From Lobosporangium transversale (lineage: Eukaryota): a stretch of 64,000 nt of DNA. The position numbers and the translations under genes were made by a program. Positions 118 to 57,500 of the stretch are shown here, one piece after another. Within the stretch, counting starts at the first letter, position 1. Every line of letters begins with the position of its first letter. The stretch lies in NCBI RefSeq assembly GCF_002105155.1, contig NW_019029014.1, positions 248,001 through 312,000 on the forward strand, read 5' to 3'. The notes under the pieces were generated by a model. It was not told where the DNA came from, made no database searches, and was given only the letters and a program-made list of their open reading frames with translations.

Positions 118-2523
118 CTACTCGTCCGCATCTTGGTGGCAGCCTTCGTCATTCCCGGTGTCTTTCAGAAGCTCTAGTCGAATGGAATTGATTGTCCGAC
201 CCTTGTACTGAGCTGTCAGTGCGTCTACTACCTCTTCGAAGTCTCGCTTCTGTTTTTCGGCAATATTCTTTATCAGATCGAAAATTTGACGCCTGCGCCT
301 GAATGCCTTGTGACGCGCCTCTGTGAATGGCCATTTGTGATTTTCCTGCTTTGCCTGAGCAACGGGCCCACGGAATTCATCCCATGCTTCCCTGACCGTC
401 AATTGCTTGCCATCGCCTTTCATGAGGTAGCCTTTATACCTTTCATCTTCCGGCAATCGTTGTGTCTGCTCTGAGGTCATTGGAGCCTGCACATGGCTAT
501 GTTGATATGGCTGTTGCTGAGGACATGGTGGCAATTGGTTGGAAAATAATGGCTGCTGTTGCGGTGGAGCGGCCTGGCGAGCTTGATATAGACCCTGCGT
601 AGTAGGAGCCTGAGGAACCGAAGGAAAAGAAGCTAGGCGGCTCTGTGCTGGCGCCAATGGAGAAGGATTAAACACAAAGGGCGGGCAAGACTGCACATGA
701 TATGGAAAAGGCTGCCGCACATTTGCGCTTTGTTGCTGCTGCAGCGATTGGAGAAGTAAGTGGATTTGCTCCTGTTGCTGCCTCTGTTGCTCCTGTTGCT
801 CTGTCACAAGGGTGGATAGGGCCTCGAGCTTCTGGACCGTCTCATGCTGGAGTTGATGAAAGACCCGCGCCTCTACCGACAACGTGTTAATGGCGCTTAC
901 CATAGTTTGCGCATTAACTGGCACATCCGCTTGGATGATGCCTGCTTGTCGGCGATGTACGTCGATGGCCCGAAGCAATTGATGTTGGAAATCCAGAAAG
1001 AGCTGGCAACCAAAGATTTCTGGTAACGACTCGAGGAGTTTGTTCTCCAACATTTTCCCCTTGTCATTCGGCTTCAAAAAGAGCACTGCATCCTGAAGGA
1101 TTACTCGCCTCATACGCACAAGAAGTTTGAGGAACCCAATGCGTGTAACAAGGGAGTCAGTGCTGAAGGCACGGGTCAATCGTTTCGAGCTCGTCTTCTT
1201 CTCGATTGGCGTCCAAAAAATGTCTTCGTCTGTCGGGACATTTGGATCGACCCCCAGCATTTCTTTGGCGCACTCCTCTCTCCAGGAGTCAGCTCTCTCC
1301 GGCATATCTTTATCAAAATTTTCCTCAATCCAAGGAAAGACCAGACGCTGGAGCTCTAAGGGCGGGGTGACCAAATCACGCTCGATAAAGTAAGGCTCAT
1401 TCGGTCCAAACTGAGCCATACAAAAAGCGCCCCTGGTTGGGTTTTTTGGAGCATAGAAGTTCTCCATTTGCCCCATGACCCACCTTCCCAAGTGGCGAAT
1501 ATCGTCCAGGCTTAAGCCCCTTTCGTAGGCTTCCGAGACCCCTGCATGTCGGCCAGAGTGCGTAATTTTGGCCGAATGCACGTCGCAGGCACGCATTACA
1601 GCCGCCGTAGTGCTCATTTGGGTTCGGCCAACAAGCGCTTCCTTTCGGTTCTCTAACCGTTCTTGGCTTGTGCCACCCCCTGTTAGCACCTTGATGCTGT
1701 ACCACTCGTCAGGGTCCGCAAAATTGGGAAGAGGCTCCTTGAACACCTACAATAGGGAAAAAAAAAAAATAAAAAAAAAAATAAGGATATATGTCACTTC
1801 GTGTAATTGAATGAGAAAAAATCATACGCTCGCGTCAAGACTGACGGCATCATTTACCTGGAACCGTTCTAGCATATAAAATGCAAACCCGCCCACGGTG
1901 CACCTTAAGAACAGCTTATGTCGATAAGCTGTCGCATAGAGTTCGACACCTTTATGGTTTGTCTTTCCACGTGTGATGCAGAAGACAAGCCCCGACGCCA
2001 GCTTTGACCCTGGCGCGGGGTGACGGGTCTGAATATTGAATGTGTTAGCCAGGTTCAAGTTTCGGATGTCCTCATCCCGCAGCAACATATGATGGCGTGC
2101 AAGGAGGCATAGCCTCTCCCTCATATACTGAAATCTTGTAACACTGTCGTAAGGTCGCCTGCCGCTTACTCCAACCGTCGGAAGCATGCGCCATGTAAAG
2201 GCCAACATACGCAGGTACATTTTAGTGTTGTACGGTTCTCGTACGGCACAGGTGGCAGTGCGGGATAAGGTGCCTGTCGTTACTTTGTGATGGACAAGTT
2301 TCTCTCCATAATTTTTGATCGCCTCCGCTAGTGGTACATCCGTTCTTGGGTTTGGGGCGGGATTGGGATACGGAGCTGTCGAAGAAGACTGTTGCCTCCA
2401 TAAGTATTGCAAAGCCTTCTTAACATTTGCGACTGTCCCCAGCGTGAGAGGAACAAAGACAATTTTGCTGCCATGTTTGTCCTCTGGTGCTTGCAGGATA
2501 ACTACAAACGCAAAAGTATATCC

Positions 2524-2556
<33 letters not shown>

Positions 2557-3966
2557 TTGTATAATAAAAAGTATCAACCATTAGTGTAAATTGTAACAAT
2601 CAAAGATACATTAAGGTGGATGCAGGATTAAGGAATGGTTTATTAAGTCATAATTTAGTAGGCTATTTATATTGATAATTAACACTGAGTTGCGGCCATG
2701 GTGTCTTGTCACCTGGGGTACGCGTGATGGCGGAGCCTTCCCAAAGGTTTGGATCCCAGTACTGTATAACAATTTATATATTAATACATGGTTATCTTTA
2801 CATACCTTGTTCTCTTTCATTTTCAGTCCTGATAACGGCTGCAGTCTTCCGCTTCGGCGTGATGTTCTTGCTTGAACCCCCAACAGTTACAGCTTCATGT
2901 GATGCTCGCTCCTCATCATTCAATGCTATATCAATCTGCCATTGATGTGGGTCGACTCCTTCAGGTGGCTCCATATTATCCCAGGAGGGAGGAGCCTTCT
3001 TACCTCTCTGTGCCAATGACCTCAGCTGAAGCTCCAGATCTTCATCCTGTTCCTGTTCCTGTCCTTGTTCCTGTCCCTGCCCCTGACCCTGTCTCCGTTC
3101 CTGATCCTGTTCCTGACCCTGTCCCTGACCCTGTCCCTGTTGTTGACCTTGGTCTATGCTTTGGCCGTCGTCGTCATCAACTTGCTCGCTGTTATCTAAT
3201 GTCTCCAGTCTCTGCTCCATGTCGCTTAGTTCATGTTCGTCGATATCTGCCTCGACTAATTCGTCGATCTCTTCTCCCTCATAGACTGCGTCTTCCCCAG
3301 CCTGAGAATTCGAAGAATCTCCTACACCCTGCTGGGCATACCCAATAGCGCCACGGTAGCAACGATCTGTGCCGATCAATCGCTTTACTGTTCGCTTGAA
3401 GACAACCGTTGTGAAGTATTCAAGCATGCGTTTCGCATCGACGCTACAGTCACCTTGATAATTTTCATTGCAGTATTGCTAAAAACAAAAAAGAGAATTA
3501 GCCAAGTCGTCTAGTTTGATAGCCTGTCTGAGATAGCTCATAGCGACATTTTGATGATCCAACATACCTCCCACAGCCGGAGCTGTGTCTTATATTGATT
3601 CACTGTCGTCGATGAATCTGGATCATCTAAAATCATCTGCAGCACACTTCTCGCCGACTCCTTCCGTGCGTTCGCCAGGGCCAGCTCTTCTTCTGTCAAT
3701 GGACCGGAGTGAAGGACATTTGAGGATAAAGAATCAGCCTCACAACGCCTAGGGCGCTTAAAAGACTTTGCACTAACTCTAGCAGTCTGTGCCACTGGTG
3801 AAGGCTCTGGAGTCGTTTCGTCAGTCAGAATAACTCTTTTTCTCCTCGGTGCTGCACGAGTGGATCCAGTGCGAGTACTTGACTTGGTTGGCTTCGTCTG
3901 ACTGGTGCTTTGTTCCAAATCCATGCAGGTGAAATTGGATAAAATCTTTTCGTTGTTGTTTGTCAT
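118..3966 (-). mobile_element. Crypton-type (CryptonF/Ndc10-like) tyrosine recombinase gene with C-terminal GCR1_C-like domain, multi-exon
   Basis: Spliced model ~3966-3568, 3478-2806, (possible 2761-2713/2686), 2501-1858, 1746-118 with GT-AG introns. Tyrosine-recombinase motifs HHMLLRDED (R), TRGKTN (K), THSGRHAG (HxxR), LGRW, MENFY (Y). C-terminal TVREAWDEF...KW...FRRRRQI resembles GCR1_C. Element ends not identified. Confidence 0.8.
3040..3150 (-). repeat. Hexamer-based coding repeat (GQGQGQ/EQDQE) inside the Crypton gene
   Basis: Tandem CCTGTC/CCTGAC/CCTGTT units on the + strand. Confidence 0.85.
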
Positions 3967-8673: not shown

Positions 8674-8959
8674 CGTCCCCGTGCGTTGAATGAAACAATT
8701 GTGGAAATCATGCATCCCGTGTGTTGGAATATAAAAAATAAAAAATAAAAATTACACAGTTTATCCTGACCTTCGTTGAACGGAGTATTTAACCCATCAT
8801 CTTTTTTGTTCTCACAGCTCTTTACATCTTTTAGTTTGTTCAACTGCTCAATACAAAGAACACTCCATCATCCTTGCTTTTCTTTTTTAAAAGCTTTTTT
8901 CCTTGCCTTACCGGCTATCTCTCTTCTGTAGCCTTTAACATCAAAAGGGCATTATTGAA

Positions 8960-29078: not shown

Positions 29079-29268
29079 AAAGAGATAATAATGCAAAAAT
29101 AAAAATAAAAACAACATACGCAGTGCTGTCCTTGACGGGAGGTTGTTCTACTAATGATTGGGGCCTACAGGATATGGTATTTACTAACGTAAGGGATTAT
29201 GTTTGCATTTGCATGACACGTGGGAAGTATAGCTGTAATAACCTGTTATAACCATAACCACTGATTCC

Positions 29269-29524
29269 TTTTTTTTTTTTTTTTTTTTCATTTGTTGTAA
29301 AATTAGGGTCGACAATTCAATACACGAGCCAGGTCGGGATTTGATTGAATCAACCTTAACCTTAAACCGTAGAGGCATAAACAAATTCAACGAAACGATC
29401 CTTCAAAGTAGACAGTATTTTCTTATAACACTTAGTATTATTCGACTCGTTTACTTGTGAGTTCATCGTGGGTAGCATGACGCCCGCCACTGTTAGCTCG
29501 ATGGGCGCTTCTTTATATTCCTCT
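29269..29524 (-). mobile_element. Putative 5'-truncated non-LTR retrotransposon 3' stub (stub C), different family from the long element
   Basis: Poly(T) 29269-29288 (poly(A) on the minus strand), ~70-nt UTR, then the end of a minus-strand frame ...KKILSTLKDRFVEFVYASTV*; no visible similarity to the 3' end of the long LINE. Confidence 0.45.
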
Positions 29525-29540
29525 CTCATTCCCCTTTTCC

Positions 29541-29548
<8 letters not shown>

Positions 29549-29571
<23 letters not shown>

Positions 29572-29930
29572 TTGAAAACATGGACTCACAAGGTCATGTA
29601 GGATTTATTCAGATGTTGGCTCTATAAATGAGGTTGTTGAGATGTTTTTCAGATATTAGAAGTCAAGGAGATCAAAGTTGTTTTTATTATTGTCAAACGA
29701 GAGTCTTTTATCAAGGACTCTCTATGACCGTCACATGATATTCTGACCTTATGAATAAAAATGGAAGTGCACCTGAGGTGCACTCCCAAGCCTCGGTACG
29801 TAACAGTTGTCCCATTACTAGAGTCGCAAATAAAGCGGTGTTTAATAATTGGCCGAAGTCGCATCGTTATACTACCAGAGTACAACATCCTGTTCATAAA
29901 TCACGTCAGCATTGAGTAGACTTCCTTGAT

Positions 29931-29933
<3 letters not shown>
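29549..29933 (-). mobile_element. 5'-truncated, diverged copy of the LINE 3' end (stub B)
   Basis: Poly(T) 29549-29573; 29574-29637 aligns with 29964-30025 and 29811-29933 aligns with 30026-30148, with scattered substitutions. Confidence 0.9.
29638..29805. mobile_element. 168-bp solo-LTR-like insertion inside stub B
   Basis: Absent from the homologous LINE 3' end; TG...CA termini; flanked by 5-bp direct repeat GTTGT (29633-29637, 29806-29810); contains AATAAA. Confidence 0.7.
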
Positions 29934-29964
<31 letters not shown>

Positions 29965-30310
29965 ATAACAAGGACCACGAGGTCATGTAGGATTTATTTA
30001 GATGTTAGCTCTATAAATGGGTTGCCCCATTACTGGGGTCGCAAATAAAGCGGTATCCAATAATCGACCGAAGCCGCATCGTCATACTGCCACAGTACTA
30101 CATCCTGTTCATAAACCACGTCAGCATTGAGTAGACTTCCTTGGTCCCAGAGGACCTGTGGCACGGTTCTACTCCCTACTTGGCCTGTTGTGCGCGAAGG
30201 TCATCCTTTAGCCGCTGTCCTCAATCATCAAAAATTTACAGCTTTCCAGGCGCTCCATAATCGCCAATTCCACCTGCTGCCGGTAGCTTGCCGCCACTCG
30301 CCGGTCTGCC

Positions 30311-31795
30311 TCAGTCCTGATCGCCTTCACATCTGCTGTTCGTCGTTGTCCCTGGTGAGAGCCTACGTCTGTGCCTCCCAACACAGTTGCGTCCCCTGGC
30401 GCGTTTGCTCACAGAGGTGATACCATTGTCTCTTTCCCAGTTGACGGTGACTTTGCAGCGTCTGTTCCAGATTTCAGTCCTGCCGAGTTCCTCGATTGAC
30501 TTGACAAAGCGGCAAACAATGTACCTTGAGATCGATGCTGTGGTTCTGAAGATCGTCTTCCATTTTTGTATCAGTTCCTTCGGCACCAAACCGTGGTACA
30601 AGTCTTGGACAGTCCAGTGGGCATCCTCACCCTCGTTCCTCCGTCCCATATCCACGTCTTCCTCACCAAACAGAGTGCTTGCATGTCGAATCTCTCTGAC
30701 GCCCTTGAACATCGCTTCCAAAGAGCCCCAAATCACGTTGTCGGCTACAGGTGTAAACGAGGGGCCTCCTTTATTCAGGTTTGGCTCCTGTGTTTTCCCT
30801 TGTTTGTCTTCCCAGAGCTTCTTCTCCTTCACTAATGCTCTTTTGCCATCCTTCGTGATGAGTTCTATGGCCTGCTTCCAACCTTTCAATTGCTCGTCCA
30901 GTGTCATGGGACATCGCCAGAGGTGTTCTATGTCCTCCTGCTCCTGTTCACACATCCTGCGGATGTCAGTCTCATACAGGTCCGGTCGCCACTGCCTCAT
31001 ATAAGTGAGTGTAGGAAGCATACCATGGACCTTTTTTATTCTGTGCGCTCTCTTGTGACAATCTGCTGGGCTGGTGAAGAGGCCTCTAGGCGTGTTGCCA
31101 TCGTGAAGAATATGCAGGCTTGCTTTCCATTCTACTTCTCGCCAGTCTGCAATATAATTCCTGACTCTGTTCTGAGACGCCCACAAGTAATGTGTTCTCA
31201 CTGCTGATTGGAGCTTTAGCAGGTGTCTAAGATCATCCTCCACCACCTCGTTCTCGAAAATAGCGTGACAGCGCAGATCGTTGTGTTCCAGTCCTTTGAT
31301 TGTCCACATTTCGCTAAAATGGGCATCTTTGGCGGCTTGGTCTGCCCTTATATTGCCTCTATTCCCAGCATGGCCCTTGATCCATTTCACAGTTACCTTC
31401 CCGCCCTGCTTAAAGAGCGCTCTCGAAATGGCTGCCCACCACACTGCGTACTTGGATCGCAATCGCTGCCGTTCAGTGCTTGCTTCTCGCTTTTGAGCAA
31501 GGTCCTTGAACTGAACCACTACCGCCATGTTGTCTATGTAGACAGTCGTTGGAACGTTACGGGGACTGACTAGGATGGCTGCGTACAGTCCTACTAGCTC
31601 TGCCTTGGTGGATGAAGCATACCCATCGACTCTACCTGAAACTACATTTGAGAAGCTTTCTGGGCCTATCTGAGCCACCACTCCGAAAGCCATCCGCGCC
31701 GCCCTTCTTCCTGCCTCTTCAAGGGACCCATCGAAGTAAAGCGTTAGCTGACTCATCGTTGATAGTTTCTCTCTTTGACGCAGTATATTGTCCAT
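30311..31795 (-). CDS. LINE ORF2 C-terminal fragment: RNase H plus degenerate Cys/His finger
   Basis: LYFDGS...SSTKAELVG...VYIDN...WIKGHAGNRGNIRADQAA (RNase HI catalytic residues); RRMC...EDIEHLWRC; the true C-terminus probably continues in another frame to a stop at 30208. Confidence 0.88.
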   Translation of the reverse strand: MDNILRQREKLSTMSQLTLYFDGSLEEAGRRAARMAFGVVAQIGPESFSNVVSGRVDGYASSTKAELVGLYAAILVSPRNVPTTVYIDNMAVVVQFKDLAQKREASTERQRLRSKYAVWWAAISRALFKQGGKVTVKWIKGHAGNRGNIRADQAAKDAHFSEMWTIKGLEHNDLRCHAIFENEVVEDDLRHLLKLQSAVRTHYLWASQNRVRNYIADWREVEWKASLHILHDGNTPRGLFTSPADCHKRAHRIKKVHGMLPTLTYMRQWRPDLYETDIRRMCEQEQEDIEHLWRCPMTLDEQLKGWKQAIELITKDGKRALVKEKKLWEDKQGKTQEPNLNKGGPSFTPVADNVIWGSLEAMFKGVREIRHASTLFGEEDVDMGRRNEGEDAHWTVQDLYHGLVPKELIQKWKTIFRTTASISRYIVCRFVKSIEELGRTEIWNRRCKVTVNWERDNGITSVSKRARGRNCVGRHRRRLSPGTTTNSRCEGDQD

Positions 31796-31818
31796 GTCAA
31801 CCTGTGGGATCTCTACAC

Positions 31819-32475
31819 CTAGGCACTCAGAGGAGCCAAACCACCGATGATGACCCTCTGGGATTTTATTATTCCTTGTTCTTGAGGAGTCCTGAGCCTC
31901 CTATTGAGAGCTTGTTCATCGAGTTCATGGCATCCACGTATCTTGTTTCGCTCTTGTGCTCTACGTCTTGCTCGGTTGAAAGCCGCTCGTCGTCGCTGTT
32001 CTCTTCTTCCTTGTTCATCGAGCCTTTGAAACCTAGCCTGTAACCGTAGGCGTTCTTGACGGCGAGCTCTTTCGATAGCCTTCGAGTGTGCGGCTTCTTG
32101 CTTGGCTTGCACCCACTGTTCACGTCGCCACACTCTCCTTCTCTCCGCCTCTTCTTTTTTCCTCTCTTGCTCTATTTTTCTTAGCAACCATTGCTCCCTC
32201 TTCCCTCTTTCCAAACGGTCGCGAAATTGTAACATTTTCCTTCCTTGAGGATCTTTCCACAGCCTATGCCTCTCGTTAGCTTCGCGCTCTTTTTCTCTCA
32301 AACGCTCTCTTTTTTCAAAATTTTCTCGCAAGTATTCTTTTTGGAGTTCGCGATCAGACTCAGTGTATCCTTCATACTCCTGCATACCCTCTTGTATGTA
32401 ACACTGTGCTCTTCTTTCTCTTTCCTCCCGCTGTTCTACACTTAGGGGATCAAGTGGCTCTCTGGGGTCTTCCAC
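31819..32475 (-). CDS. LINE ORF2 middle fragment: highly charged E/R/K/Q-rich helical segment
   Basis: 218-aa open frame between RT and RNase H; joins both neighbours by single frameshifts. Confidence 0.6.
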   Translation of the reverse strand: MEDPREPLDPLSVEQREERERRAQCYIQEGMQEYEGYTESDRELQKEYLRENFEKRERLREKEREANERHRLWKDPQGRKMLQFRDRLERGKREQWLLRKIEQERKKEEAERRRVWRREQWVQAKQEAAHSKAIERARRQERLRLQARFQRLDEQGRREQRRRAAFNRARRRAQERNKIRGCHELDEQALNRRLRTPQEQGIIKSQRVIIGGLAPLSA

Positions 32476-32489
32476 GTCACTGAGGTAAC

Positions 32490-35400
32490 TTATATATCCA
32501 ACTTCATCATCCTCATCACCTCAGTGGGCTGCCCCTCCAACATATTGTCTTCTGTGAGTAGTTCATCTGCTCTCTCATTGTTTTCAGCCTCATTTAGCTG
32601 TTGGAGCTCCCTTAAATCTCTCTCTTCCTCTTCGTCTAGTCTCTGAAGAATGTTCTTTTTGTCTCTACACCATACTTCGATAAAGTTGTGTGTGTAAAGG
32701 GACTCATGAAGGGCATTTTGAACATTGTGGAACCATGCTGGAGATGCCTTTGGGTCTCTCCTTTTCGTACGTACCTCATTCCAGGATTTGAGTGACGAAT
32801 CCTCGTCTAGAGTTTGCTCAGCATAATATATTCCTCTTGCTGCTAATTTCCGCACAGGCTGGTCATCCACAATGCCATGAAGCATGTCTGCTATATTGAG
32901 AGCATTTCCAGGGAGCCCAAAATCGTTTGCTAGTTGCAAGTCAAACTTCACTTGTCGATCGGCCATTAGTTTACAGACGCTTGATGCGAAGTTGTGTTTG
33001 TATGCTTTTATTTTGTGTGGCTCTGCAGTTGGGAGCTTGCTCGTCCTAAGGCGCTTCTGGAGGGCAATGAGACGTGCTCTACAGATACGTCCCATCAACC
33101 CATTGTCATTTAGGCGTAGGAACAGGGTTGATATCTGCTCCTCTGTCTGTGCGTCTTCTAAGTTTTTAATTGCATAGAATCTAGGGTGATGCATTATGCT
33201 GTTGGGTGTGGTTGACGGCATACGTGCTTTGCTCTTACATAGCTTCATATACTTACCTGTCATTCGTCTCACAAAAGAAGGGGGAAGTATCTGTGCCGAA
33301 ATCCTATAAAGCACCTTGGGTATGAGGACGTTATTGATGAGATATGCTGTCTGTTTGTCGGTTACTGCTTTTGAGGAGAGAATACTACACATTGACGTGA
33401 CTTCTCTTTCTACAATGTTCTCTGTTGTCTTCACCGACCCTCTGGCTGTTACCCAGACACCTAGTATCCGGACAGGGTCATCTTTGCCCAGCGGGCGGAT
33501 TTCTTCTGCCGGTGTACCAAAATGGAGATTATTGTTATTGTTGAGCTTGCTGTTTAGTGTTAGCACCTGCGTCTTTTTCGCATTGATTTCGACCCCGTTA
33601 AGAACAAAAAAGGACGTGGCGACATCTAGTATATCCTGTACATGTTGCTTGGAGTCAGATATCCATGTCGTGTCGTCCACAAAAGCCAGACATGCGAGCT
33701 GAGGTGTATCTGGAGGGCCCTCTATTCTGTATCCCTTCATGTGGTCCATAACTTCACATAGTAGTGGATCATAAGCTATTCGCCAGAGTAAAGGGCACTC
33801 TACGCCTCCTTGATCCAGACCGCATTCTGGGCGGTACTCTTTCGTAAGCCCGTATTCTGTAATAACTCTATTGACCTTGGTAACAGCGATGTTCTCACAC
33901 AACCTGATAAATGCCTCTGGAACTCGTAAGCGACGTAGCCCTCTGGACAACATACCATCGGAAGCACAATTGACCGAATCAAAACACCTTTTCATATCTT
34001 GGAACACTATCCATTGCTCCTTGCGAAACTCTCTAGCATCTTCCATTGCTGCTTGGAGGATATGAATTGGGTCCTTTGTCGTCGTTCCTTTTAAGACAGA
34101 AAAGTTAGGCCCCCGCAAGATGTTATGACGCCGCATCATTTCACTAAGTCTATTGGTTAGAACTGTGAACATGATTTTTCTTGCATGTTCTAGAAGCGCA
34201 ATCGGCCTGACTTCCGCCATGCTTCCTGACCATTCTGCTGCCTTTGGGATGCAATACAATAGTCCAGTTTTCCAATCCTTTGGTATTGTTTCTTGGACTA
34301 TTGTGGCACCAACAATCTGGAAAAGAATGTTATGTCCGACTTGGCCTTGATGTTGAAATAAATCGTTCGTGGTGCCTGATACTCCTGGTGCTTTGTTCTT
34401 TGGTGTCTCTTGGATCACTACCATAAATTCCTCCCATGAAGGTGGGCTCATGAGCCCATCATACCATTCTTCCTTGATCCTTTCGTGTGGTGCGTATTGT
34501 CTTTCCCAGCGTGTTCCTTGTTCCAGAGGTTTTGCAGGCCTGGGACCGTGCCACTTTTGAAACCATTCTCTGACGTGCCTTTTAATACCTTCTGGCTCAA
34601 GAATGTTGAAAGTGTCACCGTCCTCCTGTACTTGAATCCTGTCCAGTATGACTCTTCCATGTCCTCTACCTAACAACTTATCAATCATCCGACCTGTCGC
34701 CGTAAGCAGCTGTCCGCATCTCTGTTCAATCCACTCTGTCATCTTCGATGCTTTTTCTAAACGCCTCTCTGTCTGCATCTCCGATATTGCCTGTACCCAT
34801 CTTTTCTTGATACCCTTGCTCCATGTCTCCCATTCTTCTTCATCTGCGTTCCACCCAGGCACCTCGCCTAGATCCTCCATTCCTCTTTCCGTTTCTTCCC
34901 TCATCCATTTCGCGTGGTTGTTGAATTTGATCCGCTCCGCCTCTAGATATTCTCTTGCACTATCCTCTAGATCGGTTCGTCTTCTCCGTCTAATTGCCAC
35001 CGTTGCTTGCTTGATCTTGCTTAGGTCCCGCACTAAGTGTAAGATCGAGAGTTCTGCTTGAGGTTTCACCCCTGATCTACCTACTGTTTTACCTGGTAGG
35101 GTCGCTTTTGCACAGCGAAGCACTGTTTTTGAGTACCAGCGCCACGCTTGTTCCACCTTTACCTTCTCTAATTCTTCCGGAGTTATTCTGCCTTCATTTT
35201 GGTTCTCATATTTGAGTCCAAGATTCCTCATTTTCTCCTGATCGTCGAGAGCCATGTTTAAGGCATTTTCAAAATCATCCCACTGTGTCTTGTTAATGTC
35301 TCGAAATTGAAAGCGGAAGCCTTTGGGTTTCTTGTACTTAAGAGGATCTGCCTTGTGGATGAGTGCTTGGGTTGTGATATTGGCCGTCACCATTTTATGG

Positions 35401-36173
35401 TCCGACGAGACTCCATCAACCGAACTGTGATCAACATACACAAGCTTGCCCACCAACAAGCTATCTGTAAAGATCATGTCAATTCGGCTGACACCTTGGC
35501 ATGTAAAGTCTTGTGTTGTTGGGTGTAACGCCCTGTAGGTGTCGTAGAATTGCTCTGTTTGTAGCCATTTTAGGATATCGGTTTCTGGATTGGTGCTGGT
35601 CCTTGTGCAGTTTTTTCTGTCAATCCTGGGATTGCATACCCCATTGAAGTCTCCCATAATAATTACCTCCCTGCGTTCTGCTCTTGCACTAATACATTCT
35701 CCTTTGAGCCACTCGCTTAATTCTCTGCGCTGCTTTTCCTTTTCACGATTCGTTCTATCTTCACTGGGTACATAACAATTAATCACCCGAAGCTTTAATT
35801 GTCCTTTGAAATTAAAATCTCTAGACTGCCCTCTGCTTCCACATGAGGATATTCTCCCAGCATGTACCCATAGCCACTTGTGGATAATGAGGCCGACTCC
35901 CGTACCTCGCGTTTTCCCTTCCTCACCTGTTAACCACCAAAATTTATAACTTTCTTGTTTTATATAGTCTGCTGCTATTTTCGCACCATGATTCATATTT
36001 GTCTCTTGTAACGCAATAACATCATACTCTTCTGACTCTCCCCAATGACAAAGTGTTTCCAATTTTCCAGCTGTTAAAATTCCCTGTGTATTGAAGGTTC
36101 CTAACTTCAATCTATCATTCTTTCCATCTCTATTTACTGTCCTACATGTTACTATGTTAGGCGTATTACTCAT
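32490..36173 (-). CDS. LINE ORF2 N-terminal part: APE endonuclease plus reverse transcriptase
   Basis: GTFNTQG, ALQET, MGDFNG, SRIDMI, SDHKMV (APE); KAPGVSG, RPIALL, QDMKRCFDSV, GLDQGGVECPLLW, AFVDD, ILGV (RT). Confidence 0.95.
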   Translation of the reverse strand: MSNTPNIVTCRTVNRDGKNDRLKLGTFNTQGILTAGKLETLCHWGESEEYDVIALQETNMNHGAKIAADYIKQESYKFWWLTGEEGKTRGTGVGLIIHKWLWVHAGRISSCGSRGQSRDFNFKGQLKLRVINCYVPSEDRTNREKEKQRRELSEWLKGECISARAERREVIIMGDFNGVCNPRIDRKNCTRTSTNPETDILKWLQTEQFYDTYRALHPTTQDFTCQGVSRIDMIFTDSLLVGKLVYVDHSSVDGVSSDHKMVTANITTQALIHKADPLKYKKPKGFRFQFRDINKTQWDDFENALNMALDDQEKMRNLGLKYENQNEGRITPEELEKVKVEQAWRWYSKTVLRCAKATLPGKTVGRSGVKPQAELSILHLVRDLSKIKQATVAIRRRRRTDLEDSAREYLEAERIKFNNHAKWMREETERGMEDLGEVPGWNADEEEWETWSKGIKKRWVQAISEMQTERRLEKASKMTEWIEQRCGQLLTATGRMIDKLLGRGHGRVILDRIQVQEDGDTFNILEPEGIKRHVREWFQKWHGPRPAKPLEQGTRWERQYAPHERIKEEWYDGLMSPPSWEEFMVVIQETPKNKAPGVSGTTNDLFQHQGQVGHNILFQIVGATIVQETIPKDWKTGLLYCIPKAAEWSGSMAEVRPIALLEHARKIMFTVLTNRLSEMMRRHNILRGPNFSVLKGTTTKDPIHILQAAMEDAREFRKEQWIVFQDMKRCFDSVNCASDGMLSRGLRRLRVPEAFIRLCENIAVTKVNRVITEYGLTKEYRPECGLDQGGVECPLLWRIAYDPLLCEVMDHMKGYRIEGPPDTPQLACLAFVDDTTWISDSKQHVQDILDVATSFFVLNGVEINAKKTQVLTLNSKLNNNNNLHFGTPAEEIRPLGKDDPVRILGVWVTARGSVKTTENIVEREVTSMCSILSSKAVTDKQTAYLINNVLIPKVLYRISAQILPPSFVRRMTGKYMKLCKSKARMPSTTPNSIMHHPRFYAIKNLEDAQTEEQISTLFLRLNDNGLMGRICRARLIALQKRLRTSKLPTAEPHKIKAYKHNFASSVCKLMADRQVKFDLQLANDFGLPGNALNIADMLHGIVDDQPVRKLAARGIYYAEQTLDEDSSLKSWNEVRTKRRDPKASPAWFHNVQNALHESLYTHNFIEVWCRDKKNILQRLDEEEERDLRELQQLNEAENNERADELLTEDNMLEGQPTEVMRMMKLDI

Positions 36174-37962
36174 TTAAGGAAGGTTTTGAGGATTGTCCAA
36201 TTATCACTACAGGCTTTGATGGCAATGGTACTGTTTTTTCAGCAGCCCTGGGTGGGCCCATTAGCGCCATAATAGCGGCCAAAGTCTCGTTCGTGTCTGG
36301 GATAGCTAGTCCACTGGAGTTCTGGCCTTTCTTTGACTTCATCGCGCTGCGACTTGTGTCTGCGCTCAGACCGACTGCCATTAGCTGTTCCTTAGGGACA
36401 GTGATGCCCATATTCTTTGAGAGCATTTGAATCACTATAGACATCAACATCTGATTGGTCTGCGCAAGCTGTAATTGCTCCTGTTGCATTCTAACGATAG
36501 TCTCTTGAAGCTGTCCAATTTTCTTTTCCAATACATTTTGCATAGCTTTATTTTGTCCATTATGCTGCTGTCCAGGCTGTTGTTGCTTATTTTGTTGTGG
36601 TCCGCTGTTTTGTCCATTCTGCAGTCCATTTTGCGGTCCATTTTGCGGTCCATTTTGCAATTCGCTTTGTCTCTGTGTCTGTTCTCCATTTTGGCTGCTA
36701 CTTCCAATGATCTGTGCAAATGTACGGTTAGCCGTGACCTTAAGCGCTCCACCTCTTTGGTACTCTTTCACTGCCTGGATGTGGGCCTTAGTCTTCATTC
36801 TTTCAATGTAAATTGTGCACACCCTTTGAATATGGCCTAGTTCACCGCACTCTCTACATCTTTTGTCTTCTTTATCTCCCCACATAGTTTCTTTCCCACC
36901 TACTTTAATGGGAATCTCCATGCAGCTAACCATGTCTGCTTCTGATGAGAAATAAACGAATGCTTCACGTAAAGTCTTTGTGTATTTACCCTCTTTCGAG
37001 AAAATCCTTGGGATAATTAAAAACTCAGCCTTATTTTCGCCCAGGATCTCTTTCAAGTCCAAAGGCGTTGTTCCCATAGGGAGTTGAGACAGCTTTGCGA
37101 CATAACGCAGTTCCCACACTACTTTCTCCTTTCCAATTGTACTTAAACGAGCAAGATCTCTACCAACGAAAACCCACTTTTTCTTTTCCGCTTGGATTTT
37201 CTTTACACTCTCCTCTTGTCTAAAGAGAACTCTTGCCACAATTTTGATACCATTTTTGCATGGACGAGTTACAATTTTTTCCACTTCGCCAAACTGAGCC
37301 ATCGCTGATTTGATCCTGAAATCATCAGTCTTGGGATGAAGACCGTAAATTTCAACTGATCTATCCTGTTCTGTGATGCGTTGGTCCTGATCGACTCTGG
37401 TGAAGATAGGCTGCTCCGAAGATGTTCCGTTTTCTTCGTCTTCTTTATGGTGAGTGAGTTCCAGCAGGTTCTCTAGGTCACCCAGCGTTTCAACGGCGAC
37501 GCGAAAAACTTTTTGTCCGTCCTTATTCTTGATACGGGTTGGTCCCTCCGTGCAGTGGATGCCTTGGTGAATGAGGATCTGCTGGAGTTCATCTCTTTTC
37601 ATAGCGTAGGTGTCGCCATAGATCAGATCCACAGGAGCCGTGGCCACGAAAAACCTTTCCTTAGTTCTCTGAACTTCGATCCACTCTGTTTCGTCATCCA
37701 TTTCTTCGTCGTCTTCGTCAATTGCTGTCTCGGTAGCAGCGCGCTCTTGATCAACTTGCATTTGTTTTAGTCCCTTTTTGGGATTATAAGAACAGCGTTG
37801 AGTGGAATTCATTGCAATTGGGGTGGTGGCCCCAATACTTTGGCTTGGTTTTTGCGCGTCTTGGCCGTCAAGGGGAAGTTTTTGTTTTTTGAAATTGTTC
37901 ATTCTGCTTGTTTCTCCATCATCTTGTCGATGATGGAGTTGAATTTTTTCAGCCCCAGACAT
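36166..37962 (-). CDS. LINE ORF1 (two RRM-like domains, CCHC zinc knuckle, Q/N-rich linker, coiled coil)
   Basis: CRECGELGHIQRVC knuckle; SVEIYGLH...FGEVEKI and AKLSQLP...AFVYFSS RRM-like patterns; QNGP repeats; overlaps the ORF2 start by 8 nt. Confidence 0.88.
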   Translation of the reverse strand: MSGAEKIQLHHRQDDGETSRMNNFKKQKLPLDGQDAQKPSQSIGATTPIAMNSTQRCSYNPKKGLKQMQVDQERAATETAIDEDDEEMDDETEWIEVQRTKERFFVATAPVDLIYGDTYAMKRDELQQILIHQGIHCTEGPTRIKNKDGQKVFRVAVETLGDLENLLELTHHKEDEENGTSSEQPIFTRVDQDQRITEQDRSVEIYGLHPKTDDFRIKSAMAQFGEVEKIVTRPCKNGIKIVARVLFRQEESVKKIQAEKKKWVFVGRDLARLSTIGKEKVVWELRYVAKLSQLPMGTTPLDLKEILGENKAEFLIIPRIFSKEGKYTKTLREAFVYFSSEADMVSCMEIPIKVGGKETMWGDKEDKRCRECGELGHIQRVCTIYIERMKTKAHIQAVKEYQRGGALKVTANRTFAQIIGSSSQNGEQTQRQSELQNGPQNGPQNGLQNGQNSGPQQNKQQQPGQQHNGQNKAMQNVLEKKIGQLQETIVRMQQEQLQLAQTNQMLMSIVIQMLSKNMGITVPKEQLMAVGLSADTSRSAMKSKKGQNSSGLAIPDTNETLAAIMALMGPPRAAEKTVPLPSKPVVIIGQSSKPSLNE

Positions 37963-38299
37963 CTTGGGTTGATAAATACTTTTGCACTCTTGTGCGCTAA
38001 CGTAGGGTGTGTAAGGGGTGTTAAGAGAGGGGCAGTGTTAATGTAGCGTCCGACTTGATGGATCGGAGAAGAGTTTTATAAATGGTCCTATGACAGTCGG
38101 GTCGAATATGGATCAGTCAATTAAGAGAAGTTAAATCGGACTATATATTAGATATTATATGAGCCTCTTCTGTCGTAAATGACGCCTATTCATTTACCTA
38201 AATATGTATTTCCTTTCAATTTATTTATTTCCTATCATCCTATTTTCTACCATTTTTAAATAGTATTTAAGTAGCTTTTTCCTTCACTGCAAAAACGGC

Positions 38300-38423
38300 A
38301 TCTCTCTTCTTATTATCGATGCCCTTTTGCAGGTGAGTTTATCTTCATTATTCTCATTATGAATTCTCAGAAAATTAGCAGTTATTAAAGATCTCTCTTC
38401 TTATTATCGATGCCCTTTTGCAG
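38300..38423. repeat. 33-bp exact direct repeat in the LINE 5' UTR
   Basis: ATCTCTCTTCTTATTATCGATGCCCTTTTGCAG at 38300-38332 and 38391-38423. Confidence 0.92.
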
Positions 38424-38589
38424 CATCCTCAAAATCATTCAAAGCATTACTTAGGATCACTATCGTATCCCAAAACCACGAGGCTCTTGCCCAATCCTTC
38501 ATTTTTCATCATTACCTACTAGTTTCCAGAGATCACTAGTAGATGCTCTACGACACTTCCACGAAATCGAGGAATCTGATTCGTTAACA

Positions 38590-38662
38590 GCCTCAATGGC
38601 ACAGTGGTTAGCGCACTTGTCTTGTAAACAAGAGGTCCCTGGTTCAAATCCGGGTTGAGGCA
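38590..38662 (+). tRNA. tRNA-Thr (anticodon UGU), intronless
   Basis: Acceptor stem GCCTCAA/TTGAGGC; A-box TGGCACAGTGG; anticodon arm CTTGT-CTTGTAA-ACAAG; T arm CCTGG-TTCAAAT-CCGGG; T4 run at 38668-38671. Confidence 0.93.
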
Positions 38663-39105
38663 AAATCTTTTGATGTTCTTTTAGATGCCTTTTGTGGTTA
38701 GGATGAAGTTATTTGCAGTCTTTGTTTCATCCACAAGCGGCGACGTGTATCCTACAGACTACATGATTCTAGCTTTTTATTTAATTTAAGGAAATATGCG
38801 AAGGTGAGTCTAGAGTAGAGGGGAGTCTGGAATTATTACTGTTAGAAGTTGCAGCGCCGTGGGAGCTGCGATACTCATCGTGCTCTGTTGCATATTTCAC
38901 AATATGCATTATTATGATGGCCTAGCTAGAGTAAAAACACTAATGCGCTAAAACGATTAGCAGTAGAAATTAGTGGCAATAACGTGCCACACACAGACGC
39001 GATAAATCTTTGATATGAAGTTTTTAGAACGAACCGATGTCATCCTACAGATATATACGTAGTTACCTGGTGCAAGTCCCTCTACCAGAAAATGAATAAA
39101 TACTC

Positions 39106-39545
39106 GGATTAATCTATTTGACAGCCCATACCAAATATAGTAATTTTTGCCATTATTTGGCAGCCTATTTTTTGGGGCTGCCACCTAACTTCATACACTT
39201 AGATGGTAGCTGGGCTGCCAAATAATGTTTTGCAAAACTAATTTGAATAAGCTGCGCTTCGATCCCTGGTAGCGGCTTCGGATGGAGTGACGACAATTGG
39301 ACTTGAAATGAGTGACTTTGCTTACAGCTCCAAGGTATCAACATGTCCATAAAGAAACACTCCGTTATATATTTTTTTATTTATTTCCACGGGAGGAGCA
39401 GTGTGTACGGGATCGTGCAAATACTTTTTTTATGAGGGTGCTATTTGGCAGCTGGGCTGCCAAAGAGAGTTTTCAAACTGATCATATTTGGTAATGGGCG
39501 CTGCTAAATAATATTTGGCAGCTAGGTTGCCAAATAGATTAATCC
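39106..39545. mobile_element. Mutator (MULE)-type MITE, 440 bp
   Basis: Perfect 15-bp TIR GGATTAATCTATTTG (39106-39120 / 39531-39545); exact 9-bp TSD TAAATACTC (39097-39105, 39546-39554); internal TTTGGCAGC/GCTGCCAAA repeats. Confidence 0.88.
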
Positions 39546-39640
39546 TAAATACTCTATGGATGTGATGTGTGGGCCCATATCTTATTCTCACTTACTTTTC
39601 TACTACTTACTATCTATCTACAAAATATTTTTCCGCTCTA

Positions 39641-39913
39641 CAGTCACCCGAAAGAAAGTTTGGTCAAAGTGGGTTATTTACTATTTTTATTTTGAATCTC
39701 TGACAAACAGCTCATTTGCGACATACAAAAATACTTCACCAACCAAGATGGAAATTTACGCTTTTATTAACGAGACCAATGTAGATAATCACTGAAGTTT
39801 TTGGGCAGTACATCCTGAGGGAAAACGGCAAGAAATAGGATTGAGGACAGTGCTTCACTTCATAACCAGTTCAAAATTTTATTTTTTTGACCAAACTTTC
39901 TTTAAGGTGATTG
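39641..39913. mobile_element. Tc1/mariner-type MITE, 273 bp
   Basis: 28-bp TIRs CAGTCACCCGAAAGAAAGTTTGGTCAAA (25/28 match between ends), flanked by TA on both sides. Confidence 0.88.
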
Positions 39914-40810
39914 TACAATATAAAGCTAGTCCCTAGACGCAGTGAGCATCTACATGTGCTGCTGAGTATGTGGCACTGCCTGCTAAAGACGACCCAAGGC
40001 AGGTTCTGGCTATTATTGGTGAAAAATCAGCCCTGATTGAACATGATAACAAACTTGGAATGTAATGAGGCAAAAATAGGGATCTTTATCAACGTAACAG
40101 AAAAGAGTATTTATGCCTCTTTACTATCACTAAAAGTCACGGTTATGCTATTAAAGGTAATTGTGGCACGGTCGGCTTTGAGTACGAACTGTCACCAGCT
40201 ATCAAAATATAAATAATCTCTCGAGATACAAACGGGCAAGAGGATAGACATTCCACAATATAATCTGAGGTCTGCCCATTGTATTTTGTAATTTGGTGAA
40301 TTTGATAAACAAAATTTAGTACCGAGGGTACTTGAGCTCTTAATAAGGAAGACAGAGATAAAGACATAGAAGAAAGAGAAAAGAAAGAGAGTAGTAACAC
40401 GACACGTTATGTATCGTAGCAATGAGTATGATCGTTTATATATCTACCGAAACAAACCACACATTAGAGGTCCCTAATTACTGAGCTCATCGTTATGTGC
40501 TTAATAGCGTACGGGGACACTAGAGATGTATGCACGCGCTAAATGAAAGAAAGCATCAGGGAACCATCCACAACCTATAACAATACAACCAACAAAAGTG
40601 CAAAGTAAAGCGGCATAGTATATCTCAATTATAGATAAATCATTTGTAATTCTTTATTTAGTCCCAGAATCGCATAAAGAATATCAACATCTATTCTGGG
40701 CTACGTACGACCTAGATAAGATAAGTATTCTGGTCAATATTAGATGCTTGGGTATCGAGCTTGTGTCGTGGAAGGCTTCCTGGTAGTGGTATTTACGACT
40801 GAAATAAAGA

Positions 40811-40922
40811 CCCCGTACAAATAAAAAAAGCCCCCCGTGCAAATAATTTTTTTTTATTTGTACGGGGGAGCACGGGGCCGTGCAAATAAGAGGTGTACGG
40901 GCCCGTGCAAATATCATTTTCC
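40811..40922. repeat. Cluster of CCGT(A/G)CAAATA motifs including a 19-bp inverted repeat; possible transposon end remnant
   Basis: CCCCGTACAAATAAAAAAA (40811-40829) pairs with 40849-40867; further CCGTGCAAATA copies follow. Confidence 0.65.
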
Positions 40923-54525: not shown

Positions 54526-57500
54526 GAATTGTCTTTTCTCAGTGTTCGTTAGCAAAGGGATGCTCTCAACAATCGTAAACCACGAAGACAGGTTTCTCCG
54601 ACTGGCAGGATGGATGCGAAGAAAAAAATAAAATAAAATAAGAAAAAAAAGGATCTTGAGCATGTCTTGAGCCATTCAACCCTGGTGAGCAATATGAACC
54701 AGATCTGTCATCTTATTTCAGTTCATACTATTTATTCCAGTGAAGAATCCCGCGGAGGGGGTTGCGGAGGAAAAAAAAGAGGGAACAGAGGTATGAGACA
54801 ATGAGGAGAAACCCTGAATTCAACCCTTGGAAATATCCTTGAGGACAAAAAAATCGAAAAACTGGAAAAAAAGCTTTAAAGCGCCTGATTCATTGTAATA
54901 CAGGGCGTCAGGTCAGGCCAAACGGATATTCACTTGAATTTAGTCTAATGTAGCACAGCCGCAGACCTGGTCAGGTCTATTTTCGAAAGCAATCACTAAG
55001 TGCATTGTAAACGCGTGCATTGTTGCCTCTTTTTTTTTTTTTGATGAGTAATAAATAAATCTTATTTGAGCAAGCTATTGAATATATACTTTTACTTGAT
55101 ATCATGCTTGGTGATATAATGAAGCACTAAAAGAGCTAAGCTTATTGTTATGTATGGCCAACGGTTTAATCTAGGAGGTGTATTATTATCAAATGGTCGG
55201 AGACAGATTGATGCTTACAATAAAGGAACCTTTCTTAATAGGGGAGAAGCAGTTGAAGCTGAGGCGATCAAGAATAAAATAGCCTCCTAATAGAAAAAAT
55301 AACGGGGCAGATATGGCTTAATAAGTTTCTTGACTTGCCCAATTAGTGATGTTTTCATTTCGCTTCCTACCTCTTTGCACGATTGAAGGTTTCGCTTAAC
55401 ATCGTTTCCATTATCCAAATGATACGCGAACAAAAGATTTGGTCTGTCAAACAGAAGCAAAACCCCGACTCTTAGTTGTGACACTGTTCACTGTGTGGTT
55501 AACAATACAGGTCTCTGGAACGGCAAGCTGCTGTAATGGACAGGTTTATGTGACACTAAGTTTGCTCAGTCAATGAGTCGTATATAACAAACAGCCCATC
55601 AAAGCTTCAGCCATTATATTTTCATGAACAGGAGCTATAAAAATATGAATAAGGAAAAAAAAAGGATTGTCACATCTTGGCGACAAATATCTATAAAGTA
55701 GCCTGTCTCGCGATGGTCTAAACTCAGATCACATTCCCTAGCAGTAGGTGGACAACCTAACGCTTATAGCGCTTACTGATTTCTGCTTCAGCATGATAGG
55801 AGGTGTTGACGTTGAAGGACGCCGTTATGAATGCTTGGCTACCACAAGCCAGTTATTAAAAAGTCTAATTAGCCACTTCGATACTGCAGTAAACATTTCC
55901 ACTTTTTCGAACATTTATTCTATTACCAGTGAATCCCTTATAGCGCTTTCCCATCTACAGGACGGAGTAGGTTTGTTCACATTGGTTTTTTTTATTTTTC
56001 TCCTTCTTTACCAGAGATTCTAGTCGTCATGGCTATCCCTTGCTACCACTTCCTTCACACCAATGAATGCCACATGGAGAAAAACTATTATGATCTTCGG
56101 ATACATAATAGCCTCCCGATATGTTGACTCCTTCATAAAAGTATCAGTCTTTGCCCTCCTCCTTTTATTCATGGACGGGCCATCCTCTTAATAGAGCTTT
56201 AGGATTAGTCCAATGTTGCTTCATCCAAACCAGCTCTTTCATGTGCACTCTCTACTACTCAGAACCCGGCCTGCCGCCGCACTGTCAGACCTACGAGCAG
56301 ATCAAGACCAGCTTTAAGCTGAGGAGGTAAAGGAGCAAGACGGAAGCGCGAGCTGCTGCGAGCAAGACGAGATATAAGCGAATAGCTACACGTACTTAAA
56401 AACGAATCGATACTAGTGCACATTTTCCCTAGTATGAACAGAGCATCGATATCATCTTCATCAAGGATGTGGAGAGGCCGTATTAGGAGAATCTTGTTTC
56501 CAAAGACGTCTTATAAAAGCCTCTGGCGCCCCAATGCTCTATAAGGAGTCTCACCGATTTGAGATAGATGTGTTTTTTGTGTCCTATGAAGAATGGTTTC
56601 TGAAACTCCAAGTCTTCATATTCCTTAGTTTCGCTAGTGTACAGTTCCTGCCAGAGAAATGGTGTGAGAGAATAATATAAGGAGCGGGAGACAGTTGAGA
56701 AATAGAGAGTGCTTGTCTGCGGAAGAGGGATGTTCCAGAACAAAATTTCGAGTAGATTCAGCCATATGAACAATTGTTTGGCGGAAAGTCCTGTTCCTGC
56801 ATAATAGACATGATGTTTCACACATTAAAAAAGGCCACTACTTCCAACGTGTTGTTCAATTCTCAGTACCAACAGATAAACGCTTTGCACCCTTCGCGTT
56901 GTTTGGACATAACCAAACATATCTATATCGCTTATTAGCAACGGGCTCATTATCAGAAACCCTTTTCGCCAAATATTGAGAATGCACCCTGGAACAATAT
57001 AAATCAAAACATTTCAAGATGTGCTTCGGTTCTACCGTACCCAGTTTGTCCGGTTGAAATCCTTTATCAGCGACAGTAGGTCCTCCCAGAGCATTAGTGC
57101 CTCTGTCGAGGACCCATTGAAGGCTACATTTTTCAGATTAAGTGCTGATGGCGTACCAATCTCTCAAGTTGCGATAGTTTTGGTATCATCCACGGCTTAC
57201 AAGCGTAAAAATACCAGATCTACTTTGAAGGTTGGTGCTAGGGTATACGCGCTCAATCCTACTTTAATACCCAAATACAAGATTGAAGCCATATCCAATT
57301 CTTTACATGGATCCTCACGCTATCATCAAGTACACCATTGGAAAACTCAAAGACAAGCTTCCTCCCTTCAAAGTTTTTTTATTCGGGTTTGCAACAAGAG
57401 GAATATAAAGAGGCCTACGATATGGAGTTTGGCTTATATTATGTAGACCTTTACCTGACTTGGTGAGAACAAGTTTGAAATAATGGGGTGAACAAGGGGA

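Follow-up and report, generated by a model that had tools for sequence, protein, structure and literature searches.

An APE-RT-RNase H LINE facing a tRNA-Thr gene in Lobosporangium transversale, and a likely preference of this Mortierellaceae family for sites upstream of tRNA genes

We analyzed a 64-kb stretch of the genome of Lobosporangium transversale (contig NW_019029014.1; hereafter the window, with positions numbered along the whole stretch), in which a long interspersed nuclear element (LINE), designated L, lies beside a tRNA-Thr(TGT) gene. L (29934-38077, minus strand, 8.1 kb) encodes an apurinic/apyrimidinic endonuclease (APE), a reverse transcriptase (RT) and RNase H. An earlier note on this DNA, made from the sequence alone, had placed a tRNA-Thr gene at 38590 and a minus-strand LINE with its 5′ end towards the 5′ end of that gene; the former was confirmed by ARAGORN and Rfam (67.1 bits), and the latter by the domains and the gene coordinates. 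The only tRNA gene of the window (default ARAGORN and Rfam) and its only LINE are thus neighbors, a pairing which is also what selected the locus. When ARAGORN was allowed introns and a lower score threshold, it predicted implausibly long introns, and these predictions were disregarded. The features of the locus are collected in Table 1.

Table 1. Features identified around the tRNA-Thr gene of the window
Feature	Position	Strand	Basis or remark
tRNA-Thr(TGT), presumed target	38590..38662	+	ARAGORN; Rfam RF00005, 67.1 bits
Multicopy insert resembling a solo LTR, 385 bp	38171..38555		Termini, flanks, depth
Spacer, LINE 5′ end to LTR-like insert	38078..38170		Sequence; unlike the flanks of the relatives
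LINE 5′ UTR, ~115 nt	37963..38077	-	Alignment; X1 family contig ends at 38076; L002 base 931
ORF1, 598 aa, RRM and CCHC zinc knuckle	36166..37962	-	RRM_1 E=3e-4, zf-CCHC E=6e-3
ORF2: APE, RT, RNase H	30208..36173	-	RVT_1 8e-23, Exo_endo_phos 5e-13, RNase_H 8e-13
3′ UTR and 30-nt poly(A) tail of L	29934..30207	-	Tail (29934-29963) abuts stub B, spacer 0
Stub B, 5′-truncated LINE copy that looks older, with 25-nt tail	29549..29933	-	88.6% identical to L
Multicopy insert inside stub B, ~170 bp	29635..29805		174-nt gap in the alignment of B with L
"Stub C", not a LINE; probably unique intergenic DNA with an ordinary T-tract	29269..29548

The 5′ untranslated region (UTR) of L opens with a conserved block common to three related metagenomic loci (L002, L003 and L004), the sequences upstream of this block being unrelated. 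The 5′ end of L was placed by the block and by the termination of a family contig of sequencing run X1 at 38076; the equivalent junction in L002 is base 931. The two open reading frames (ORF1 and ORF2) overlap by 8 nt, ORF2 starting at 36173, and the end of ORF2 (30208) is suggested by its likeness to L002. The structure of L, with APE and RT in ORF2, a nucleic-acid-binding ORF1 product, poly(A) and no long terminal repeats (LTRs), is that of autonomous non-LTR elements of the APE type (L1-like). The best match among solved structures was human L1 ORF2p (E=2e-27), with R2 behind it (E=9e-15).

ORF2 of L is broken over three frames, near 32520, 31890 and 30360, with RNase H in a later frame than RT, and its pieces are colinear with the unbroken 1887-aa product of a relative (P0002). 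Contigs of runs X1, X2 and X4, which represent the majority form of the family, hold extra letters near all three positions, so that L is broken by small deletions and the family majority is unbroken. Gaps aside, 15 of 6809 bases (~0.2%) distinguish L from the five long X1 contigs of the majority form, and L is therefore considered young. Between RT and RNase H (31820-32520) there is a long, highly charged Arg/Glu-rich stretch, poorly conserved in sequence yet present in the relatives, which is a candidate host-factor contact or linker.

Copy depth was judged on the contigs of X1, X2 and X4 and is not equivalent to true copy number; these runs contain 82-85% of the words of the window, may derive from the source strain and are hence not independent of it. 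Depth in X1 rose from ~120 in the flank to 820-940 in ORF1, 1800-3300 in the RNase H region and 7559 in the bin at the 3′ end, and a similar climb towards the 3′ end was seen in X2 and X4. This pattern is that of a multicopy LINE family with many 5′-truncated copies. No empty-site allele of the locus was seen among the joints listed for the three runs. In a further run, X7, nearly all differences from the window were G>A (312) or C>T (101), the pattern of a bisulfite-converted library, and this run served for repeat boundaries only.

Two additional kinds of family member were noticed in the contigs. One contig in each of the three runs skips 33017-37304, 31651-32862 and 30737-31600, which points to an internally deleted, non-autonomous copy elsewhere in the genome. 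Contigs of single-copy depth that are ~87% identical to 36935-37935 and 30515-31049 represent a diverged sister subfamily in the same organism.

The earlier note had described a head-to-tail stack of three poly(A)-tailed LINE insertions, namely L and two stubs, B and C. All three T-tracts are present (29269-29288, 29549-29573 and 29934-29963). However, the window holds 13 T-runs of at least 20 and 29 A/T runs of at least 15 bases, so that a T-tract alone is no proof of a retrotransposon tail. Comparison of stub C with the whole of L gave a local score of 28, equalled in 11 of 100 shuffles, and comparison with the four related loci (L001-L004) gave scores of 23-25; its depth was consistent with one copy, a single contig spanned 28972-29461 unbroken from the neighboring gene into the stub, and no Rfam family was matched at threshold. 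A LINE or a short interspersed element was therefore rejected for stub C, and the stack contains two LINE copies, L and stub B.

In the case of stub B, the description as a diverged copy of the 3′ end of L held: within 29574-29933, 164 positions match and 21 mismatch the last 185 nt of the L 3′ UTR. Thirteen of the 17 transitions between B and L are C>T or G>A and four are the reverse (p=0.025), an AT-ward excess as expected of an older, decaying copy, and B therefore looks older than L. The insert that interrupts B has LTR-like ends and a probable 4-bp duplication (GTTG), its left end being uncertain by 2 bases, and belongs to another repeat family, each run having 11-13 contigs there, with a high depth at 29712. 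The proposal that the newest copy lies nearest to the tRNA gene thus agrees with a young L and an AT-decayed B carrying a nested insertion, for two copies instead of three.

The 5′ truncation point of B touches the tail of L with zero bases between them and no duplication. Such a junction could also result from a single event of template jumping, in which the RT copied 185 nt of RNA of a sister subfamily and then jumped to the tail of L RNA; the stack would then be uninformative on repeated targeting, whether or not the family favors tRNA genes. Template-switch chimeras have been described for a fungal LINE (PMC2104539), and in L002 the 71 nt that follow the tail of the full-length copy are 100% identical to the internal ORF2 of that same copy. 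However, the 11% divergence of B has a decay-like spectrum and there was time for an insert to enter it, whereas L is ~0.2% from the majority; nor does template jumping address the tRNA gene found at L003 (see below). We consider a one-event origin of the tandem very improbable.

A candidate echo of the 3′ UTR, scrambled at the 5′ junction of L, was also inspected and found unconvincing (8-nt match; matches of at least 9 occurred in 64 of 2000 shuffles).

L does not lie immediately upstream of the tRNA gene, contrary to what had been stated. It is separated from the gene by 512 bases, of which 389 (38171-38559) are accounted for by a 385-bp insert and a duplication. This insert, overlooked before, has TG...CA ends with inverted termini of 7 bp, is flanked by the 4-bp direct repeat CTTC (38167-38170 and 38556-38559) and entered the DNA 30-34 bp upstream of the tRNA gene. 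In X1, X2 and X4 the depth within it (at 38496) was ~35-40x that of the flank; in X7, one high-depth contig stopped exactly at its end, 38555. It thus combines the TG...CA ends, short inverted termini, duplication within the usual 4-6 bp and multicopy state of a solo LTR, and from these sequence features it probably is one; no internal gag-pol and no parent element were seen in the window, and no search aimed at a parent element was made.

Within the LTR-like insert a 33-bp stretch is present twice (38300-38423). A GT donor-like site comes directly after the first copy, and a pyrimidine-rich AG closes the second, an arrangement that resembles an intron formed by tandem duplication.

When the 389 bp are taken off the 512-bp gap, the remaining segments (38078-38170 and 38560-38589) give a distance between the LINE and the tRNA gene of ~123 bp, which may be the original one. 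Alternatively, L may have arrived later than the LTR and inserted at 512 bp: in a variant of tRNA targeting that shares its probability, the element would use, as Ty1 does over ~1 kb (PMC5911963), a broad window of open chromatin or phased nucleosomes extending to ~1 kb upstream of genes transcribed by RNA polymerase III (Pol III), with no fixed distance. The spread of the distances (512 bp raw, 123 bp corrected and 154 bp at L003) is compatible with this variant, which we nevertheless hold to be distinctly improbable, as L sits exactly at the 5′ junction of B and the two tRNA cases share one orientation.

Independent evidence was obtained from the related loci, four in number, which were recovered from 52 pattern hits when metagenome contigs were scanned with an ORF1 alignment. 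A tRNA-Cys(GCA) gene, cut by the contig end, occupies the first bases of L003 (1-67, minus strand, 54.5 bits, E=2e-9). The LINE 5′ block opens at 222 on the plus strand; LINE and tRNA gene are thus head-to-head and 154 bp apart. The geometry of the window is therefore repeated at a different tRNA gene in a different species, and in both loci that show a tRNA gene (2/2) the 5′ end of the LINE faces the 5′ end of the tRNA gene. The chance of at least one of four loci having such a tRNA gene was estimated at 0.002-0.012, given 150-600 tRNA genes, 40-50 Mb and non-coding insertions, the gene number and genome size being assumed, not measured, values.

The locus L002 contains a second stack, in the order: a diverged 3′-end stub with poly(A), a 19-nt inverted piece, the full-length copy and the 71-nt ORF2 piece mentioned above. 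The 19-nt piece at the 5′ junction (912-930) matches the 3′ UTR of the full-length copy itself (8686-8704) perfectly in inverted orientation, and the first 15 bases of the contig are an inverted copy of the stub 3′ UTR (815-829); these may be a templated 5′-junction signature or an effect of assembly.

No tRNA gene was found by ARAGORN or Rfam in the 930 bases upstream of the full-length copy of L002, part of which is the other stub. The region 25-200 was considered as a decayed head of a tRNA or a short interspersed element, since words resembling box A and box B occur on both strands, and was rejected: ARAGORN, Rfam and folding (z=-0.4) gave no support, and the box-B match at 77-87 was not above chance (35 of 200 shuffles).

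A stack without a tRNA gene speaks for another reading, in which this LINE does not target tRNA genes at all, but favors A/T-rich tracts, including the tails or junctions of older copies, and survives in long gene-free islands where tRNA genes tend to lie as well. B would then have inserted into the poly(A) tail of L, and L003 would be a coincidence enriched by selection. All junctions in the window and in L002 are of the tail-to-5′-end type, the tail of B ends in a purine-rich A-tract context, and the island at 38.1-41 kb is full of other repeats. A precedent is Zorro3 of Candida albicans, a fungal L1-type element which, as here, shows a target preference and poly(A) at its junctions, and which integrates into poly(A) tracts and has poly(A) on both flanks (PMC7175516).

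On the other hand, B looks older than L, which is the wrong order for B entering the tail of L. No poly(A) stands before the LINE 5′ end in the window, L003 or L004, in contrast to Zorro3; in L002 the stub tail lies 19 nt before the 5′ end. The matching orientation and similar distance at L003 are left unexplained. We therefore judge a preference for A/T tracts without tRNA targeting rather unlikely.

The closeness of the 123 bp obtained after removal of the insert to the 154 bp of L003 was counted in favor of tRNA targeting, as was the young age of L relative to B, which is the order expected from repeated targeting. From these two loci we conclude that this Mortierellaceae APE-RT-RNase H LINE likely integrates by preference ~120-155 bp upstream of tRNA genes. 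The association with tRNA genes claimed by the earlier note thus gained an independent case (tRNA-Cys at 154 bp); this is the only one of the four relatives that shows a tRNA gene. Insertion at a fixed distance, as the note had also proposed, was not borne out: 123 and 154 bp are neither a tight pair nor the value of the TRE5 elements of Dictyostelium discoideum.

Several observations weigh against the preference. A tRNA gene was seen in one relative out of four, the 930 bases of L002 contained none, and the contigs of L001 and L004 end, tRNA-free, ~60-85 and 123 bases from the LINE 5′ end; these two are too short to score 120-155 bp, yet they argue against a TRE5-like 50 bp. As contigs assembled from metagenomes, L002 and L003 may represent collapsed or chimeric sequence. 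Between the two distances there is a gap of 31 bp, and one of them is a reconstruction. Repeats are abundant in the intergenic island around the tRNA-Thr gene, downstream of which MITE-like ones (resembling miniature inverted-repeat transposable elements) occur as well, and the AT-ward bias of stub B could come from subfamily composition instead of age. Finally, inspection of the junctions by eye revealed no target-site duplication of L or of stub B; in particular, the tail of L and B adjoin with none between them, where a second insertion into one and the same site would be expected to leave such a duplication.

A more far-reaching proposal, for and against which we see about equal grounds, is that the lineage is tethered to Pol III genes in one orientation, ~120-155 bp upstream and thus farther out than the TFIIIB footprint on which TRE5 and Ty3 rely. 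It would then form a new distance class and be the first tRNA-targeted LINE in early-diverging fungi, sharing its tRNA targets with an LTR element at about -30. The distance of ~120-155 bp is possibly set by the first upstream nucleosome.

Repeated hits upstream of one tRNA gene would build head-to-tail stacks, and the present locus may have arisen in three steps: (i) stub B would have inserted first as a short, 5′-truncated copy and then aged through AT-ward decay and the nested insertion; (ii) the full-length L would have inserted at the 5′ junction of B, between B and the tRNA gene; and (iii) a separate LTR-type element would have landed 30-34 bp from the tRNA gene and recombined to a solo LTR, pushing the LINE stack 389 bp outward. 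By analogy with TRE5-A only, the Pol III machinery (TFIIIB/TFIIIC), or the first nucleosome on its upstream side, might tether a particle of ORF1 and ORF2 products, and APE would nick the DNA, always in one orientation, to start target-primed reverse transcription.

Homologues of ORF1 numbered 13 (40-55% identity), and all seven that carried names were from Mortierellaceae (Entomortierella, Mortierella and Gamsiella); the one ORF2 match out of nine with a species name came from Entomortierella parvispora. The ORF1 genes CAO3570247.1 and CAO3568357.1 of Mortierella alpina and EMPS_01762 of E. parvispora are situated on contigs of Mb size. The ORF1 profile matched 363 representatives (E <=0.001). 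The full-length relatives P0002-P0004 also carry RNase H, and the P0002 cluster has 28 members, intact full-length ones existing among them. Sixty-nine proteins matched the RT profile, 54 of them from Geosiphon pyriformis (25-38% identity), and none of the 69 bore a dictyostelid name in this search of limited sensitivity.

The RT tree comprised 25 rows, namely 21 of the 25 proteins supplied (P0003, P0004, P0219 and P0221 were excluded by a length filter) and four DNA-derived rows. All rows are fungal or without a name. The LINE of the window, L002, L003 and L004 formed one clade (support 100/97), separate from the Geosiphon group. Within it L003 branched outside the other three, at a weakly supported fork (87/83, 81/65), so that the tRNA habit would span the group; the ORF1 of L003 clusters with Mortierella alpina proteins.

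No relatives were found with the ORF1 and ORF2 profiles among the 31, 39, 69 and 82 pattern hits in prokaryote and viral contig collections, and only generic RT clusters were obtained from the ESM Atlas. The conserved 5′ motif had eight matches in the viral contigs; none was accompanied by a tblastn match to the LINE proteins, and they were taken as chance.

Known elements with the same layout and position are NLTR-B of Polysphondylium pallidum and NLTR-A of Dictyostelium purpureum, which contain APE, RT and, after RT, RNase H, and lie upstream of tRNA genes (PMC5006619; PMC5911963); the fungal LINE shows the same combination. The distances differ, with 39-64 bp for NLTR-B and 2-6 bp for NLTR-A (PMC5006619) versus 123 and 154 bp here, and the hosts are dictyostelids as opposed to a fungus.

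The TRE5-A, -B and -C elements of D. discoideum resemble the fungal LINE in that the 5′ end faces the 5′ end of the tRNA gene, two ORFs overlap and an oligo(A) tail is present (PMC5911963, PMC5391098). TRE elements form tandems without nesting at occupied tRNA genes, with the 5′ end towards the tRNA gene (PMC5391098), and the TRE5-A ORF1 protein binds TFIIIB subunits, with targeting dependent on box B (PMC5911963). In contrast to the 123 and 154 bp found here, TRE5 distances peak at 47 +/- 3 bp, with a range of 37-211 bp in the reference genome (PMC5391098). TRE5 ORF2 consists of APE, RT and a zinc finger and lacks the RNase H found in the fungal element (E=8e-13); TRE5 insertion generates target-site duplications, which were not found for L or stub B; and TRE5 ORF1 is unlike L1 ORF1, whereas the fungal ORF1 has RRM and CCHC motifs. 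The fungal LINE may thus work in a manner analogous to TRE5 and NLTR-B, but with its RNase H and different distance it is not a TRE5 member.

Outside Mortierellaceae, the nearest named relatives are the APE-RT-RNase H LINEs of G. pyriformis (Glomeromycota), many with RNase H, which nevertheless constitute a separate clade. Grem-LINE1 of Mucor circinelloides is likewise an L1-like non-LTR element of Mucoromycota with a strong location bias; it is pericentromeric and has zinc finger, AP endonuclease, RT and zf-RVT domains, RNase H and tRNA being unmentioned in the available part of that source (10.1101/706580). As regards the LTR-like insert, its 30-34 bp, a value from one site, falls in the range of two Ty3-type, tRNA-targeted LTR elements, DGLT-A (13-33 bp) and C. 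albicans beta/Tca8 (6-30 bp for the beta LTR) (PMC5911963).

In the reviews consulted, dictyostelid amoebae are the only hosts listed for non-LTR elements that target tRNA genes, whereas all fungal examples are LTR elements (PMC5911963, Table 1). Our literature search, whose coverage excluded most subscription journals and Repbase Reports, found no report of a tRNA-targeted LINE in fungi. If the preference is real, target-primed elements of a second kingdom can also follow this safe-harbor strategy, and their greater distance from the gene would speak for another kind of tether or for a nucleosome-based rule. On the independent origin that the earlier note had proposed, it bears that NLTR-A and NLTR-B share the layout and the position upstream of tRNA genes. 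Should the fungal LINE group with them, the habit of targeting tRNA genes would go far back in this LINE branch or would have moved between soil amoebae and fungi, as opposed to having arisen by convergence.

The mechanism should be testable, because intact full-length members exist and one relative clusters with proteins of M. alpina, and it could yield a tool for safe-harbor integration. M. alpina is transformable and used industrially.

Downstream of the tRNA gene, MITE-like elements with inverted repeats of 19-30 bp occur at 39106-39545, 39639-39915 and 40811-40921, and depth is very high at 38708-39400. Elsewhere in the window, a degenerate 157-nt fragment of large-subunit rRNA (55700-55856, minus strand; Rfam 72.6 bits) is possibly an old retroposed or captured piece. 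A 542-aa frame at 121-1746 (minus strand) contains the motif HSGRHAG, which we take to be typical of tyrosine-recombinase (Crypton/NDC10-like) domains.

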